Below are positions 31,419 to 55,753 of a stretch of 64,000 bases of DNA, in pieces. Below the pieces are notes generated by a model that ran no database searches, was not told the DNA's origin, and worked only from the letters and a program-made list of their open reading frames with translations. Numbering within the stretch: position 1 is the stretch's first letter; each line of letters begins with the position of its first letter. The position numbers and the translations under genes are program-made. This stretch comes from a virus: positions 1 through 64,000 of the IMG/VR virus record IMGVR_UViG_3300045988_111187; one strand, written 5' to 3'.

Positions 31419-31558
31419 TAATTGAAGAAATAAAAGCAGCATTCATAGATTTCCTGCCGGCAGGAACAGTGCTTTACTAATTACGATATTTTTAACATGG
31501 ATTTTGGACAAGATTTAGAACCAGAAGAACTGACCAAGCATTATGATCGGTGTTATAA

Positions 31559-31861
31559 CCCCAAATAGTATTAAACCAATATAATTCTATTATAAAAGTT
31601 TAATACATCTCTTTCAGAGATCGGGTTATTAGCCTAAGCCTTGAAACAAAGGCTACGTTATTTGAGAATAGATAGTTACCAAGGAATGTTTATCCAAGTT
31701 TCTTGCTCTAAGGATGGTGATTAAACAGGAGTAGTGTATTTGACGAAACAGTGTTGCCATTATATAAAACCTCTTATAACATTGGCGATGGGTACTTACA
31801 GGAGAAATCCTGACTTATCCCTAACGGGATTTACATCTACCAAGGAGACCAAAAGGTCTCC
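31559..31861 (+). ncRNA. orphan omega-RNA-like structured RNA, paralog of the region 5' of iscB; no adjacent nuclease gene
   Basis: about 270 nt align with the reverse complement of 52767-53032, including fully compensatory stem changes (tacgga/tccgta vs caaggaa/tttcttg; gcaagc/gcttgc vs atggtg/tgccat); ends in the hairpin ggagacc-aaaa-ggtctcc (31844-31861). Confidence 0.6.
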
Positions 31862-31918
31862 GAGGGGATGTATTAAAACGGATAAATAACTTTAAATATA
31901 TTTAATAGAATATGAGAT

Positions 31919-32266
31919 ATGGAATTGATTTTGAAACAGAAGAAGAGGAGGATGAAGAGTATGACTGACGAGGAATTTGTATTGGATAATGAGAAAAGGG
32001 TTGTTGTAAGAAAAAGAATATCTTATTTAAGCAAAGGGGATAAAGTGTGGATTGTGTCTTCCGACGGGTATCTGCTACACACGGACGTGGTTAGAGCCGA
32101 CCGCGGCCGATCTTATGTGGATATAGACGGTATCCTGTATTGGAAACGAGGATTGGATGGCAAGCATCGTAATCGTAATAACTACATGCAGTTTGCCATG
32201 ACACCAGAAGACGGTAAGAAGTATGTCGTATATTACCCGGAAGGATTTAAAGACAATGACTTATGA
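31919..32266 (+). CDS. hypothetical protein (115 aa)
   Basis: ORF; 4-nt overlap. Confidence 0.5.
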   Translation: MELILKQKKRRMKSMTDEEFVLDNEKRVVVRKRISYLSKGDKVWIVSSDGYLLHTDVVRADRGRSYVDIDGILYWKRGLDGKHRNRNNYMQFAMTPEDGKKYVVYYPEGFKDNDL

Positions 32267-33781: not shown

Positions 33782-34159
33782 ATGAAAAAAGAAGTTACAA
33801 TCAAGGAAGATATGGTTGCGTTTTATAAAAATGCAGGAAAGGAACTATGGATTTATAACGGACTTTTTAGAAACAAGGTATTGTCTATAAAAAAAGATAA
33901 AGCCATTATCATGTGTGAAACTGATGCTGAATATGCTGTACTGATAGAAGATAATCAGTTTATTGCCGTAGCAAAAAACATGGATTATGATTACTGCTGC
34001 GCATTCACATTAGGTAATGCCGAGGCTTATGGAGATCGTATGGGTATATCGTGCAGTGTATGCTTGCTTGAGGATAACGAAGATAAAGCAAGAGAGATGC
34101 TAAAGGAGGCAATAATAGAACTTTCAAAAAACAGTAAAATAGATTGCGATGGGCTTTGA
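33782..34159 (+). CDS. hypothetical protein (125 aa)
   Basis: ORF. Confidence 0.45.
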   Translation: MKKEVTIKEDMVAFYKNAGKELWIYNGLFRNKVLSIKKDKAIIMCETDAEYAVLIEDNQFIAVAKNMDYDYCCAFTLGNAEAYGDRMGISCSVCLLEDNEDKAREMLKEAIIELSKNSKIDCDGL

Positions 34160-36518
34160 ACTTAGACCTTACCAAAAAGAGGCAGTAGATGCCGGGCTTA
34201 AGTTTCTTACAGGAAGATCTAAGAAGCCTGGCATAATAGTAGCTCCATGCGGATGTGGAAAGAGCCTTCTGATATCCAAGATAGCACATGAAATAAATAG
34301 ACCGACGTTAGTGTTACAGCCCTCAAAAGAGATTCTGGAGCAGAATTATGCAAAGGCTGTATCATTCGGTTCTAAACCTACCATATATTCTGCCTCATGT
34401 GGCGTAAAGGAATTATCGGCTATGACTTATGCTACACTTAAAAGCATAAAGAAAGACGTAGCAAGGTTGAAAGATATAGGGATAGATACGATCCTGATAG
34501 ATGAATGTTTTACTGGAGATGTGGAGATATTAACCGAAAAAGGGTTTGTTCAATTTAATAAATTAGAACAAAATGTAAGGGTAGCTCAATATGATAAAGG
34601 ATTTATTGATTTTGTGATGCCTATCAGATATATCAACAAGCCGCACGATGGTGACATTTGTTTACTTCATATTAAACATGGAATAGATCTTCCAGTGACA
34701 AAGAATCATGATTTCTTGTTTTATGATAAGAAATACGGTAAATGGTATAAACAGAAAATATCTGAAGCTTCTTTTAAATCTGGGAAATGCATTCCGGTAT
34801 CAGGGATATCACGTGTAGATAGCGAAGGCGATTCCTTATCTGACATGGAGAGGTTGTTTATAGCAACACAAGCAGATGGAAGTATTCATAACAAAAACGA
34901 AAATGACACAATTATATCTTTCTCATTTTCAAAAGAAAGAAAAATAAAAAGGATTCATTATTTATGTAAGAATGCAAACGTTGAGATATGGGAAGTTAAA
35001 GGAAAAATAGAAAAAGAAGGAAATACGAAAAACAGAAGAAGGTTTATGGTAAGAATGCCAAAGTTTACAACAAAGGATATTCGAAATCATATATCATTCC
35101 CAATGTCTTACGAAAAAGCAAGATCGGTAATAGAAGAGTGTTCTTTATGGGACGGCAGTATTATAGGGAATACGATGCTTTATTATTCATCGACCGATAA
35201 AACGCAGGTGGATTTTTATAATTCTGTAGCCACAATAGCTGGCCACGGATGTTATGTTTCTATTGAAAAGGATGGCAGAAAAGAAACATATTCGGATGTT
35301 TATAGGCTTTTTATAACAAAAGACAAAAAACTAAGAGGCACTAACTCTATGTATAAACGATATGAAAAATACACCGGACAAGTTTATTGCGTAGAGGTTC
35401 CATCTGGATGTATAGTACTAAGATATAAAGGATATACATTTGTTTCTGGAAATTGTCATTCAGGATATTCTCCTGAAGAAGGTTCTGAGTTTATAGAGTT
35501 TATGAGCGAGTTTCCCGAGGCGAAGGTGCTTGGCTTCACCGCCACTCCCTGCCGCCTCCGAACCTACAGTTCCATGCTGGAAGGAAACTACAGCAAGCTC
35601 AATATGCTGACGAAAGACGAGCATAATTTCTTCAAGAAAATAGTTCATGTGACTCAAATACAAGAATTAACTTCTCAAGGGTTTTGGTGTCCACTTAAGT
35701 ACGAACGATGGTCGTTTGATGAATCGGCGCTGATGTTGAACAGCACCGGAGCTGAATACACCAACGAATCTATTAAAGAAAGTATTGTACGAAACGGCTT
35801 AAACAACTCTATCTACAAGCGCCTTCTTCAACTTATGAACGAACGTAAGGCCATTTTGGTTTGTATGGATTCTATCGAATCATGTAATAGAATATCAGAG
35901 TTCATGAATGCCAGGATGGGAGCCATAACCGGTGTCGTAACATCGCTAACAACCAAAAAGAAAAGAGAGCAAATCATATCAGATTTCAAAGAAGGTAAGT
36001 TGAAGGTGGTTTTTAATTATTCAACGCTTGCTACCGGATTTGATTTCCCTGAACTTGATTGCGTGATGTTTGGTCGCCCAACATTCTCATATTCAACATA
36101 TTACCAAATATTAGGCCGCGCCGTCCGCATCCATCCTGACAAGAAAGAGGCGCTGATAGTTGATTGCTGCGACAACATGAGGCGTTTCGGTCGGATAGAA
36201 GACTTGACAATCGAACAATTCCCTTCTAAGGGCTGGTGTATGTTTGCCGGCGATCAACTTCTGTCCAATATAAGGATGGGTGATATTATTACCAAAGACG
36301 AGATCCTTCGTCGGGCAGCCTCGCTTAAATCTGTGAATGGAGATGGTAGGAGAGAAGACGATCTTGACAGCATAATAATGTGGTTTGGTAAATATGAAGG
36401 GATTAGATTCAAGGACATACCGGTGTCGTATTTTAGGTTCTTGGCTGAGAATATGGCAGTAAAACCAGGAGATAGAAAAGAAAAGATTATCGAATATTAT
36501 AATAGAATAAAAGCATGA
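34149..36518 (+). CDS. SF2 DEAD/DEAH-box-type helicase interrupted by an intein (789 aa precursor; about 473 aa mature)
   Basis: motif I APCGCGKS; motif II LIDE-[intein]-CHSG; motif III FTATP; motif VI QILGRAVR. Confidence 0.75.
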   Translation: MGFELRPYQKEAVDAGLKFLTGRSKKPGIIVAPCGCGKSLLISKIAHEINRPTLVLQPSKEILEQNYAKAVSFGSKPTIYSASCGVKELSAMTYATLKSIKKDVARLKDIGIDTILIDECFTGDVEILTEKGFVQFNKLEQNVRVAQYDKGFIDFVMPIRYINKPHDGDICLLHIKHGIDLPVTKNHDFLFYDKKYGKWYKQKISEASFKSGKCIPVSGISRVDSEGDSLSDMERLFIATQADGSIHNKNENDTIISFSFSKERKIKRIHYLCKNANVEIWEVKGKIEKEGNTKNRRRFMVRMPKFTTKDIRNHISFPMSYEKARSVIEECSLWDGSIIGNTMLYYSSTDKTQVDFYNSVATIAGHGCYVSIEKDGRKETYSDVYRLFITKDKKLRGTNSMYKRYEKYTGQVYCVEVPSGCIVLRYKGYTFVSGNCHSGYSPEEGSEFIEFMSEFPEAKVLGFTATPCRLRTYSSMLEGNYSKLNMLTKDEHNFFKKIVHVTQIQELTSQGFWCPLKYERWSFDESALMLNSTGAEYTNESIKESIVRNGLNNSIYKRLLQLMNERKAILVCMDSIESCNRISEFMNARMGAITGVVTSLTTKKKREQIISDFKEGKLKVVFNYSTLATGFDFPELDCVMFGRPTFSYSTYYQILGRAVRIHPDKKEALIVDCCDNMRRFGRIEDLTIEQFPSKGWCMFAGDQLLSNIRMGDIITKDEILRRAASLKSVNGDGRREDDLDSIIMWFGKYEGIRFKDIPVSYFRFLAENMAVKPGDRKEKIIEYYNRIKA
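34506..35453 (+). other. intein (316 aa) with a LAGLIDADG-like homing-endonuclease region, inserted in helicase motif II
   Basis: block A CFTGDVEIL; block B TKNH; LFIATQADGS (LAGLIDADG-like); block F VYCVEVPSG; C-terminal ...SGN followed by the +1 Cys of the extein CHSG. Confidence 0.75.
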
Positions 36519-51173: not shown

Positions 51174-51479
51174 TTAATATAAATCTTCCGAATACAATTG
51201 TTCTCTAATGGCATTCCTATCTACTACCATTTCTTGATTATTGTTTCTAACAAGTTCAGATGCTTCCTCTCTTGTTAGAAACCGGTTCTTGCTTGTCAAA
51301 AATCCTTGAATACTACGGTTTTTATGAGCAATACCATAAGCTGCAAACTGAGAAATGATAGAACAATGTCTCAATCCACAGAACACGGCGCCGGATGGTA
51401 TATTGGTGGGCTGATGAGGACGCTTCTTGCCGTCCTGCACCCAGATGGCCGCGCATATTACTATTTCTTTATTATACAT
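51174..51479 (-). CDS. hypothetical protein (101 aa)
   Basis: ORF; starts 37 nt after the iscB stop. Confidence 0.45.
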   Translation of the reverse strand: MYNKEIVICAAIWVQDGKKRPHQPTNIPSGAVFCGLRHCSIISQFAAYGIAHKNRSIQGFLTSKNRFLTREEASELVRNNNQEMVVDRNAIREQLYSEDLY

Positions 51480-51516
51480 GATACGTTTTTCTATTAAATT
51501 TATTAAATCCGTTCAT

Positions 51517-52737
51517 TTACTTTAATATAATCGGATGCCTCTTCCCTCTAACGAGTTTAAACTTTTTGCGTGAAACATCTTTTGAATTTTCTCCGTTGAA
51601 ATCCCTGATATTGAAACTCCCTGATTTTCTCCTTCCATAAACAAAGAATATTTTATTGTTATACAACACTTTATCAAACAACCTAAAACCGAAAACCTCA
51701 AAAGGAGCTTGATTGTTTTTCTTCTTCCCCCCTTTTAAAATTTTCATTTTATGTATTTGTCTATTATGTCTACGAATTAAACGTTTTAAATATTGACGTT
51801 CGATTCGTTTCGCATTAATATTCTTAGAAATGACAAACGCGTCGGATGTATGGGATTTTTCAATCCCATATTTAATCCGATTATGTTTCGTAATGTAACC
51901 AAACGTCATAAAAACTCTGTCGTATCTGGATTTTAACTCTTCATACAACCTCCATTTCATAATTCCCATTACGGCTGCGTCGCGAAGCGACTTGCCTCTT
52001 CTGATCTTTAAATCTATATTACCTTTATGGTATTCTTTGTGACATGTTTCACATAAAGTTATAAGATTAGAAGGGGAATCCCCTCCGGTTTTTCGAGACT
52101 CAATATGATGAACATTCAGTATAGAATCTTTTGACTTGCCTTTACAATACTGGCATTTATGTCCATCTCTTGCTAAAACATACTCCCTTGTGTTCCAAAA
52201 CTCAAGTTGATCACCTTCCTGGTATTCTTTACCTGATATCTCAGGATTCTTAATCTTTTGAGTATCGAATTGAGCTACTTCAATAACAATACGAGATATT
52301 GGTAATATAGAGCAAACATTTTCAACAACACGAATATGGGCGTCTACTTTGTATTTCACCGAAGGTGCTATCCATCCTGGACGCTTGCTTTTTACTCTGT
52401 TATCGAAACGAGGTTTTCTATACCTCAACCTATTCCGTCTTGTTCTTCGTAGCTCCCTTCTGGTAGACAAAAGATCTACAATGTCATTTCTGAGGATTAC
52501 TTCACTACTGTAAAGTTCTTTGCTTTTCGTTGTAGCTGATAGACCAACGTGTTTGGTTCCAGCATCAACGCCTAATACAATTTCTTGTTTGTAACTATCG
52601 GATATGTACGTCAATCGGATGGTAAACGGACATAGGTTTACAACGACTGCTTTGTTTGATTTGAGCAGTCTCCTAACCTTTCCATGTCTTGTTGTTGGCA
52701 TCAGAGGTTTACCATCTATGTCTTGTACATACACCAT
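51517..52737 (-). CDS. iscB: IscB RNA-guided nuclease (IS200/IS605 OMEGA system), 406 aa
   Basis: PLMP domain (DGKPLMPTTRHGKVRRLL); RuvC-I LGVDAGTKHVGLSA; Arg-rich bridge helix; RuvC-II IVIEVAQFD; HNH CQYC ... HHIESRKTGGDSPSNLITLCETCH; RuvC-III HTSDAFV. Confidence 0.9.
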   Translation of the reverse strand: MVYVQDIDGKPLMPTTRHGKVRRLLKSNKAVVVNLCPFTIRLTYISDSYKQEIVLGVDAGTKHVGLSATTKSKELYSSEVILRNDIVDLLSTRRELRRTRRNRLRYRKPRFDNRVKSKRPGWIAPSVKYKVDAHIRVVENVCSILPISRIVIEVAQFDTQKIKNPEISGKEYQEGDQLEFWNTREYVLARDGHKCQYCKGKSKDSILNVHHIESRKTGGDSPSNLITLCETCHKEYHKGNIDLKIRRGKSLRDAAVMGIMKWRLYEELKSRYDRVFMTFGYITKHNRIKYGIEKSHTSDAFVISKNINAKRIERQYLKRLIRRHNRQIHKMKILKGGKKKNNQAPFEVFGFRLFDKVLYNNKIFFVYGRRKSGSFNIRDFNGENSKDVSRKKFKLVRGKRHPIILK

Positions 52738-52740
52738 ATC

Positions 52741-53032
52741 TACAAACGTTTTTAATGTTTATTCAACATAAGTCAGGAATATTTCATCCTGTTAGTACCC
52801 ATCGCCAATGTTATAAGAGGTTTTTCGCAAGCAACACTGAAACCCGAATACAATCTCTGTTTAATCGCTTGCCTTAGAGCTACGGACTTGGACAAACATC
52901 CGTAGGTAACTATCTATTCTCAAATAACGTAGCCTTCGTTTCAAGGCTTAGGCTAATATCCGGACCATTTCTGGTACATTAAAACCTTATAATGGAATTA
53001 TATTGTTTTAATGTTATTTCGGATATTGAAAG
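52741..53032 (-). ncRNA. putative omega-RNA of IscB (5' of iscB, same strand)
   Basis: lies where IscB omega-RNAs are encoded; homologous to 31559-31861, with covarying stems. Confidence 0.65.
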
Positions 53033-53276
53033 TATGGTATCCATCAGAAACCTCTCCCATGTCTCCAGGTTCTGCTTTAGGTTCAGGATGATTCGGATAG
53101 CAGTAGTCCACTGATGCTTCTAACACTGACTTTACGTGTTCTATTATCCTCGCAACATCATCATGTTTAAAAAAATGCTTAAATCTTTCAACGAATTTAA
53201 TATCTTCGTTGATTGCTGATTCGAACTCTTCTTTTGTCATTGCTCTAACTACATCTTTAAAATCTTTTAATTCCAT
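52998..53276 (-). CDS. hypothetical protein (92 aa)
   Basis: ORF; its last about 11 codons lie inside the region conserved with the orphan RNA. Confidence 0.45.
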   Translation of the reverse strand: MELKDFKDVVRAMTKEEFESAINEDIKFVERFKHFFKHDDVARIIEHVKSVLEASVDYCYPNHPEPKAEPGDMGEVSDGYHTFNIRNNIKTI

Positions 53277-54611: not shown

Positions 54612-55753
54612 ACTCCATTATAGACGCTTCATTGAGATTCGTAACCTCATTTCTCTGCATCCGATTATAGAGGATATCAACTCCTACCCTCTGTATGTTT
54701 ATTGCAGCATTCAAATCTCTATCTATTTCAATGCTGCAATTTTCACACTTGAAAACTCTATCTGATAAAGTTAAGTCTTCTTTCTTCCATCCGCATTTGG
54801 AACACGTCTTTGATGATGGAAAAGAACCTGTCTATTACGACAAGTTCTTTTCCATACCAATTACATTTGTATTCCAACATGCTTCTAAACATTGAGAAAC
54901 TTGTATCGGATATAGCTTTAGCCAATTTGTGATTCGATAACATTCCAGAAACATTTAAATCCTCTATGCAAATAACATCATAATTATTTACAAGTGAAGT
55001 GGTAACATTATGAAGAAAGTTGTTTCTCCTATTAGCAATCTTGTTATACAATCTTGCTATTTTTATTTTATTCTTTCTATGCCTGTTACTTCCTTTACTC
55101 TTTCTACTTAAATGTCTTTGTATTTTAGCTATTTCAGATTGTTTCTCTCTGAAAAACTTGATATTATCAATCACAATTCCGTCAGACAATGTAGCAAAAG
55201 ATTTCAATCCTAAATCTATACCAACCGTTTTACCAGTCTTTCCCTTGTGATGCATGACCGTATCTACGAGAATAGAAACAAAGTACTGATTGCAACAATT
55301 TTTAGATATCGTACATGACAGCATCTTTGAATTATTAGGTATATTCCTATCAATAGACATCTTAACCCATCCTATTTTCTCTAATCTTATCTTATTATCT
55401 TTTAATGAGAATTTTTGATTAGGTAATCTATAAGATTGGTTTCCAGATTTCTTTTTAAAAGAAGGTCTGCCTATTTTCTTCTTTCTTGTTTTAGAGAAAA
55501 ACTGGTTGGTAATTTCTTGAAAATCCCTTATCTTTTGTTGTATAGCAGCGGCAGAGATTTCATTCAACCACGGCTTGTCAATTATTAAATCAGATTTAAT
55601 AATGATTTTAGGTTTAGGATTACTATCCTTATCATAAGAATTGAAAAATTCGACATTAGCATTCCAAATTACACGAATACATCCAAAAGTCTTAGAAAGC
55701 AACCCCTTCTGAGACTTATTAGGATATATTCTGTATTTGAAAGCTTTATGCAT
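54612..55753 (-). pseudogene. tnpB: TnpB (IS200/IS605 OrfB) with a 1-nt frameshift before the zinc finger
   Basis: N-terminal FKYRIYPNKSQ; RuvC-I GIDLGLKSFA; RuvC-II ICIEDLNV; after a +1 shift at the run at 54830-54833 the frame reads [13 protein letters not shown] ... CENC ... [10 protein letters not shown] (zinc finger and RuvC-III) to a stop at 54612. Confidence 0.8.

Follow-up and report, generated by a model that had tools for sequence, protein, structure and literature searches.

The closest described systems to the locus analyzed here are IscB with its omega-RNA, transposon derivatives that retain only a guide RNA, the ISC transposons, and the free-standing homing endonuclease genes of phages. 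ISC transposons encode IscB, and several ISC families have a published target of N/ATGA (Kapitonov, Makarova and Koonin 2016, PMC4810608). Meers et al. (10.1101/2023.03.14.532601) describe palindrome-associated transposable elements (PATEs) as encoding omega-RNAs that act in trans, equate the omega-RNA end of IscB elements with the transposon RE, have TnpA and IscB recognizing one TAM, and report an orientation bias consistent with read-through transcription. Stand-alone omega-RNAs in host chromosomes are attributed to Altae-Tran et al. 2021, as cited in PMC11610941. Stand-alone omega-RNAs, PATE omega-RNAs acting in trans, and the N/ATGA target are already published.

The locus lies in a stretch of 64,000 nucleotides (positions 1 to 64,000 of IMG/VR record IMGVR_UViG_3300045988_111187; here, the window), which is part of a large phage genome; its nearest relative in GenBank is csAssE-Sib, a phage of 151 kb from the human gut (OR575929). 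The locus shares with the HEARO/IscB omega-RNAs (RF02033; PDB 7UTN and 7XHT) a full-model match, covarying helices, and a guide that sits at the transposon boundary, 5′ of helix P1, but no iscB follows it, and its 5′ module (P1 plus a second small hairpin) is unlike that of all IscB-linked copies examined. As with PATEs and stand-alone omega-RNAs, it is a protein-less derivative of the IS200/IS605 superfamily that has kept the guide RNA and must depend on a nuclease and a transposase from elsewhere. For PATEs, the nuclease named as working in trans is TnpB, whereas the scaffold here is of the IscB type; the published stand-alone omega-RNAs are described as residing in host chromosomes, whereas the carrier here is a gut phage lineage of ∼150 kb with occupied/empty polymorphism. 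Insertion without duplication immediately 5′ of ATG(A/G) and a Y1 transposase predicted to act in trans are features in common with the IscB-encoding ISC transposons (PMC4810608), from which the element differs as a putative 364-bp deletion derivative with a relaxed fourth target base. Its likeness to free-standing phage homing endonuclease genes (intronless homing or marker exclusion) lies in a predicted cut of the insertion-free allele followed by copying through recombination, although here the specificity would come from a flank-derived RNA guide and the nuclease is not carried. New in this study are the IscB-type scaffold in a gene-less element, the gut-phage carrier, the population polymorphism at the insertion site, and what look like nested flank deletions.

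A 364-bp insertion relative to phage csAssE-Sib

Comparison of the window with csAssE-Sib identified an insertion of 364 bp at positions 31555 to 31918 (plus strand). The site is contiguous in csAssE-Sib (...CATTATGATCAGTGTTATGGAATTGATT...) and is split in the window as ...GTGTT / ATGGAATTG..., so that the window carries a clean insertion without target duplication. The left flank of the element reads ...GGTGTT. The right flank, ATGGAATTG, provides the first ATG of a 115-aa ORF (31919 to 32266, plus strand), and this ATG (31919 to 31921, plus strand) is the target/TAM triplet adjoining the element. A flotillin gene, the 115-aa ORF, and a PD-(D/E)XK nuclease gene occur in identical order in csAssE-Sib, without the orphan omega-RNA; the 115-aa ORF, which precedes the nuclease gene, had no Pfam match. 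The element and the upstream flotillin operon have the same orientation. A 3-nt ambiguity at the junction (TAT) gave alternative boundaries of 31557 to 31920, which were replaced by 31555 to 31918 after analysis of the junctions of family copies. The termini are 5′-ATAACCCC...GAGAT-3′, and base 1 of the element is base 1 of helix P1 and base 1 of the HEARO model.

The initial annotation had placed a free-standing RNA gene at 31559 to 31861. It rightly recorded that no nuclease gene (iscB) is adjacent and that a 115-aa ORF comes next, but the true edges are 31555 and 31918, and the RNA is part of a discrete 364-bp unit, very probably a non-autonomous transposon, with both ends and an exact empty site in csAssE-Sib.

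Guide, scaffold, and tail can be distinguished at the locus. The predicted 16-nt guide, CATTATGATCGGTGTT (31539 to 31554, plus strand), is phage flank directly 5′ of the element. The omega-RNA scaffold (31555 to 31818, plus strand) begins with P1 (ATAACCC/GGGTTAT) at 31555 and continues with the HEARO core and a terminal hairpin, AGGA-GAAA-TCCT. The remaining 100 nt (31819 to 31918, plus strand) form a tail that represents the other transposon end, with an imperfect hairpin and the terminus TTTAATAGAATATGAGAT. No protein-coding gene is present; the sole ORF, of 51 aa (31734 to 31889), overlaps the structured RNA. In the minimum free energy (MFE) fold, hairpins lie near both ends of the element, at 31568 to 31606 and 31833 to 31871, and are mutually unlike. 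The second is long and imperfect, with a core of GGAGACC-AAAA-GGTCTCC at 31844 to 31861; this is the 3′ hairpin previously assigned to the RNA itself, which is present as described but belongs to the other end of the element.

The tail was as conserved as the scaffold, approximately, among 38 unique mini copies (defined below). At its terminus, TTTAATAGAATATGAGAT, the tail is similar to IscB-element far ends (TTTAATAGAAAAACGTATC/ATG and TTTAAATGAGGATATAGAT/ATG), a resemblance confined to the terminal motif. Local alignment of the tail with the iscB 3′ end and far end gave a z score of ∼3.4, with an observed score of 48 and shuffles reaching 51, and BLASTN-short returned no match to the tail in 80 IscB loci. 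Homology of the tail to this region was therefore set aside as suggestive only. The tail may nevertheless include a few terminal bases left from a former iscB, in which case the element would be an internal-deletion derivative that has since multiplied.

Two further differences from csAssE-Sib were seen in the surrounding phage backbone. A 16-bp palindrome at 31451 to 31466 (TTCCTGCCGGCAGGAA), perfect in the window, had been noted upstream of the RNA; the palindrome exists but is phage backbone, 89 nt outside the element, and was rejected as an element part, being present in imperfect form in the empty-site relative csAssE-Sib. There, 10 extra bases just after it (at window position 31468) shift the frame of a small annotated ORF. 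A helicase ORF of 789 aa (34149 to 36518, plus strand) has ∼430 aa between its ResIII and Helicase_C domains, and the csAssE-Sib homologue is 473 aa. The inserted segment starts DEC/FTGDVEIL and ends ...VSGNC/HSGY, and it resembles an intein placed within the DExH box; no intein match came from Pfam.

The insertion carries an IscB-type omega-RNA scaffold

BLASTN aligned positions 31560 to 31818 (plus strand; the orphan, copy A) with 53022 to 52768 (minus strand; copy B, 5′ of the window's iscB) at 78.9% identity over 266 columns, in agreement with the similarity first noticed, and a MAFFT alignment was also made. The homology between the copies stops at 31818. Both copies matched the full Rfam model RF02033 (HEARO, the IscB omega-RNA; positions 1 to 211): copy A at 31555 to 31799 (plus strand) with 95.7 bits (E value, 2.6e−18) and copy B at 52791 to 53001 (minus strand) with 105.2 bits (E value, 1.3e−20), each above the gathering score of 83.

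The cmscan alignment showed two helices with compensatory changes, CCAAGGAAUG/AGUUUCUUG versus CCUACGGAUG/AGUCCGUAG and GGAUGGUG/UGCCAUU versus GGCAAGCG/UGCUUGC. Such changes recurred among 21 diverse omega-RNAs from related phage contigs, for which RNAalifold predicted 47 pairs, 11 of them changed on both sides. In these pairs, 99.2% of cells were paired, compared with ∼40% when the partners were slid, and two-sided changes affected 58 cells, whereas shuffles gave 19.3 ± 4.1. The omega-RNA-like character and compensated helices that the initial annotation had proposed from two copies were thus upheld by the covariance model and by the wider family. P1 itself covaries among subtypes (ATAACCC/GGGTTAT, ATATCCG/CGGATAT, ATAATCG/CGATTAT, and ATAATCT/GGATTAT).

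Seventeen diverse IscB-linked omega-RNAs share 137 invariant columns, of which copy A has kept 135, including all of those in the core (120/120), and at 141 of 148 variable columns its residue recurs in IscB-linked copies. Helix changes co-segregated perfectly within the set of 38 unique mini sequences, with CG/CG replaced by TA/GC in 11/11 and three pairs of another helix changing together in 18/18. The only helix-breaking variant at the RNAalifold pairs was one G-A pair, found in two copies.

Some helices occur as discrete alleles, such as AGCCTT/AAGGCT versus AGTGTT/AACACT and CCAAGGAA versus CCTACGGA. These alleles are shuffled between mini copies (L038, L062, and L066) and IscB-linked copies (L092 and L098), a pattern that indicates frequent recombination or gene conversion among copies. 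Given this mosaic sharing, recombination with functional copies contributes to the conservation pattern. No IscB-linked omega-RNA with the P1 and 5′ hairpins of the mini element was present among 160 IscB loci, and the compatibility of this 5′ module with the window's IscB is therefore unproven.

The IscB element of the window

One IscB gene, apparently intact, is encoded in the window, 21 kb from the orphan and on the opposite strand. The full element (51480 to 53026, minus strand; 1547 bp) comprises the omega-RNA, iscB, and a short far end that adjoins the ATG of a 101-aa ORF (51174 to 51479). The iscB gene (51517 to 52737, minus strand) encodes 406 aa with matches to Pfam RRXRR (E value, 3.2e−61) and HNH (E value, 4.9e−11), and alignment with the PDB IscB chains 7UTN and 7XHT (OgeuIscB) gave E values of about 1e−42 to 5e−42, with the LGVDAG, HH, and SDAF motifs aligned. 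It is the presumed partner of both RNAs. Copy B (scaffold at 52768 to 53026, minus strand; P1 ATATCCG/CGGATAT) lies directly upstream of iscB and is co-oriented with it, whereas copy A has no adjacent iscB or HNH ORF. The first helix of copy B (ATATCCG...CGGATAT) starts at 53026, upstream of the cmscan start, and the predicted guide, GGATACCATACTTTCA (53027 to 53042, minus strand), lies in the flank of the element. Family comparison placed this guide-side boundary where the flank ...ACTTTCA continues, in uninterrupted sequences, as ATGAATTGTATC; the guide joined to ATGAATTGTA was intact in at least 119 IMG/VR stretches. The far end was placed by reference to other loci and to csAssE-Sib. The latter was rejected as an empty site for this element, since a different 91-aa gene occupies that position.

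A 92-aa ORF upstream of the IscB element crosses the junction (52998 to 53026, minus strand), and its last 9 codons and stop are omega-RNA scaffold; ending inside the scaffold, it is a truncated fusion. The intact counterpart in other contigs continues ...FNELYHDGE.... A second gene of the OMEGA type, a TnpB-like ORF of 331 aa (OrfB_IS605 and HTH; 54758 to 55753, minus strand), lies 1.7 kb from the IscB element. Its zinc-ribbon TNB domain is cut short, and it is probably a truncated or pseudogenized TnpB. No TnpA lies beside it, and no TnpA-like ORF was found in the window by motif scan or by a tblastn search based on an IS608 TnpA sequence. A Y1 TnpA search gave one weak match, in locus L008.

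The mini element belongs to a mobile phage family with an N/ATG target

An exact 26-mer from the scaffold was used to collect the family, yielding 72 loci from IMG/VR phage contigs. Fifty-two copies matched the full 364 bp at 89 to 99% identity with no adjacent iscB (here, mini elements; 38 unique sequences). At ∼18 other loci the omega-RNA is followed by iscB; these are 76 to 86% identical to copy A, with the match ending at the scaffold end. One locus (L056) carries two minis and one IscB element. The far ends of the mini copies lie in about 8 different contexts and their guide sides in about 16, which implies that the copies moved after iscB was lost.

At 7 of the 8 sites occupied by minis, corresponding to 8 of 9 distinct 8-mer flanks, the far end adjoins an ATG. 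By eye, an ORF reads on from this ATG at most of these, and the ATGGATAAC site runs into a terminator-like hairpin, not an ORF. Every IscB-element far end examined adjoins the ATG of a downstream ORF, and guide-side flanks, where uninterrupted in other contigs, continue with ATG. The fourth target base is relaxed, being A or G in the family and T at some IscB-element sites. Judged from these junctions, the N/ATG target of the mini family equals the published ISC target N/ATGA (PMC4810608). It is also in keeping with an omega-RNA end that serves as RE and with one TAM for both TnpA and IscB (10.1101/2023.03.14.532601).

These features indicate with high confidence that the sequence at 31555 to 31918 is a non-autonomous transposon of the ISC group within the IS200/IS605 superfamily that has lost iscB and kept the omega-RNA scaffold. 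A lone, decaying second IS copy is ruled out by the exact ends and the full-length occurrence at several sites. The earlier statement that the RNA is not a decaying IS end holds in so far as the helices covary and at least 52 full-length copies occupy about 8 sites, yet the element does look like a deletion derivative of an IscB element.

The flank at the far end of an element tends to be constant while the guide-side flank differs between contigs (window positions 52998 to 53276 and 53027 to 53042). This was seen for IscB elements (L003, L014, L016, L030, L032, L064, and L071) and for minis (L013, L027, L031, L039, and L058). The contigs lack varying amounts of upstream phage DNA, parts of genes included, and nearly all junctions fall exactly at an ATG of the intact sequence. 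These arrangements look like nested deletions beside the guide end, each of which would generate a new guide. They could stem from recombination between two direct-repeat copies after a local hop or from aberrant TnpA cleavage. At one mini site (L006, L010, L011, L033, L050, L062, L067, L070, and L074), the downstream ORF opens with ATG and an A-run (ATGAAAAAAAA...) of about 8 to 11 A. The run varies in length, so that the reading frame after the start codon differs between contigs.

A search of 185,579 representative genomes of bacteria and archaea did not recover a 20-mer from the mini element, one chance 18-nt match being the only hit. The element looks confined to phages, a result that says nothing about host IscB.

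Guide sequence and polymorphism of the insertion site

The guide of OgeuIscB is 16 nt, and the same length was assumed by analogy for the orphan. In IMG/VR, 30 occupied and 109 empty alleles of the window's insertion site were identified, the empty allele being defined as the guide 16-mer followed without interruption by ATGGAATTGAT (109 IMG/VR stretches). The base at 31549 is G in the window, A in 109 of 109 empty alleles, and among the occupied alleles G in 15 and A in 15. Pairing of the window's guide with any of the empty sites would thus include a single rG·dT wobble in the TAM-proximal half, at a distance of six nucleotides from the TAM. This wobble may weaken cleavage of empty sites and counts against a trans function. 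On the RNA strand, an empty site reads as guide followed by ATG(R), whereas an occupied site reads as guide followed by ATAA. Target and self could therefore be told apart by the third base of the motif.

IscB in related phages

IscB relatives are common in this phage clade, with 352 and 306 stretches matching two subtypes. Based on 80 of the 352 and 80 of the 306 IscB matches, at least 27 of 66 mini-bearing contigs have IscB on the same contig; for the other 39 of 66, none was found among the matches listed, and many of the contigs are partial. At least four omega-RNA/IscB subtypes coexist in the clade. On some contigs there are two or three IscB elements belonging to different subtypes, with a spacing of ∼4 kb in one instance (IMG/VR 3300045988_110790 [L114/L117], _120989, _147128, _121141, and _116941). 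Among GenBank phage records, IscB homologues were present in only 31 of 50,697.

Parabacteroides phage PF672P2 (OP172820), a cultured phage of Parabacteroides faecis, carries an orphan HEARO (130 bits; L076, 2930 to 3188) that is even shorter than the mini element. It ends ...AAGTTAAATT/ATGAATT, directly before the start codon of a DUF3127 gene, and its existing annotation is that of a hypothetical CDS encoded by the opposite strand. No IscB homologue was found in PF672P2 by tblastn.

Proposed mechanism and alternative explanations

The reading that we favor, to which we assign a probability of roughly 0.65, is that the mini element is a PATE-like ISC derivative whose RNA borrows IscB (51517 to 52737) in trans, cuts empty sites, and homes. 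The HEARO match, the covariation, the exact empty site, the mobility of the family, the kept scaffold, the target, the presence of IscB in the window and on at least 27 of 66 mini-bearing contigs, and the published precedents all count for action in trans. On the other side stand the guide wobble, the 39 of 66 mini-bearing contigs with no IscB among the matches listed, phage PF672P2, the distinct 5′ module, and the negative TnpA search of the window. Taken separately, a trans-homing function of the orphan RNA is judged slightly better than an even chance. The initial annotation had offered a second, trans-acting guide for IscB as one candidate reading, and this would be the most plausible function.

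Read-through transcription from the upstream operon would produce an RNA that starts with 16 nt of flank (CAUUAUGAUCGGUGUU) and continues into the scaffold, as would fit the orientation bias described by Meers et al. (10.1101/2023.03.14.532601). The orphan RNA would bind IscB from the 52-kb element or from another co-resident IscB, and the complex would cut insertion-free phage genomes at CATTATGATC(A/G)GTGTT followed by ATGG, the predicted substrate being CATTATGATCAGTGTT or ...GGTGTT and then ATGGAA. The genomes cut could be those of co-infecting relatives or a sister copy after excision. The occupied locus would be spared because there the guide precedes ATAA, not ATG, and recombinational repair from the occupied genome would copy the element in (homing or retention). 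Hops to new ATG sites would presumably rely on a Y1 TnpA transposase supplied in trans.

Two alternatives are each considered improbable, and to the same degree. The mini element could be an inert hitch-hiker, that is, a dead internal-deletion derivative whose conservation stems from recent spread and gene conversion with IscB-linked copies and whose RNA is now idle. The similarity of its tail to IscB-element far ends is what a deletion derivative would have, the shuffling of helix alleles between mini and IscB-linked copies shows recombination, for many mini-bearing contigs no IscB was found among the matches listed, and the guide has a mismatch with all empty sites known. Part of the high identity among copies could indeed be due to recent spread and gene conversion and not to selection. 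An idle RNA is harder to reconcile with the retention of 135 of 137 invariant positions at about 21 to 23% divergence from the window's IscB-linked copy, with movement to about 8 sites after the loss of iscB, or with the 38 unique copies, which show no build-up of helix-breaking variants apart from the G-A pair in two of them.

The second alternative retains an active RNA and changes the partner: a guide-only parasite would work mainly with an IscB of the host or of a co-infecting phage, and the link to the iscB gene 21 kb away would be incidental. The 39 of 66 mini contigs for which the matches listed include no IscB on the same contig, the orphan HEARO of PF672P2 in a genome without IscB, and the coexistence of several IscB/omega-RNA subtypes in the clade are all consistent with a foreign partner. 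However, absence is not implied by 80 of 352 and 80 of 306 matches on partial contigs, and the window encodes an IscB of its own. The failure to find the mini 20-mer in the 185,579 bacterial and archaeal genomes likewise suggests a phage-confined element while being silent on host IscB.

That the insertion was co-opted as a cis-acting 5′ leader, promoter, or insulator of the downstream gene is highly improbable: 7 of 8 sites adjoin an ATG, most with an ORF reading on, and a σ70-like match lies in the tail (31873 to 31902, 17 nt upstream of the ATG), but the position is fully accounted for by the use of ATG as transposition target and TAM throughout the family, so that no cis-regulatory role is needed, the downstream genes are unrelated, csAssE-Sib has the same gene order without the element, and the conserved part is an IscB-type scaffold, not the tail alone.

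The trans-acting reading can be extended, tentatively and at odds that fall well short of even, to the whole family. Minis would then be guide-only OMEGA parasites with a flank-programmed guide that hijack the IscB of co-resident elements. One phage nuclease would be served by several unlinked guides that cut and convert rival genomes at start codons, and nested deletions at the guide end would supply new guides.

Implications

The ends and the N/ATG target of a compact (406-aa) IscB family are now defined, and omega-RNA mini-transposons can account for ORF-free insertions of ∼260 to 370 bp that immediately precede phage start codons. With 30 occupied and 109 empty alleles, the latter matching the guide and followed by an ATG TAM, RNA-guided homing between phages is directly testable. 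The step usually placed between the OMEGA systems of transposons and CRISPR is the unlinking of nuclease and guide. If the orphan RNA acts with IscB in trans, this phage lineage would be a natural case in which nuclease and guide are unlinked and separately mobile. Should the more tentative proposal for the family also be true, guide-only minis would represent a natural intermediate, employed in phage-phage competition, between OMEGA systems of one transposon and one guide and multi-guide, trans-acting, CRISPR-like arrangements.
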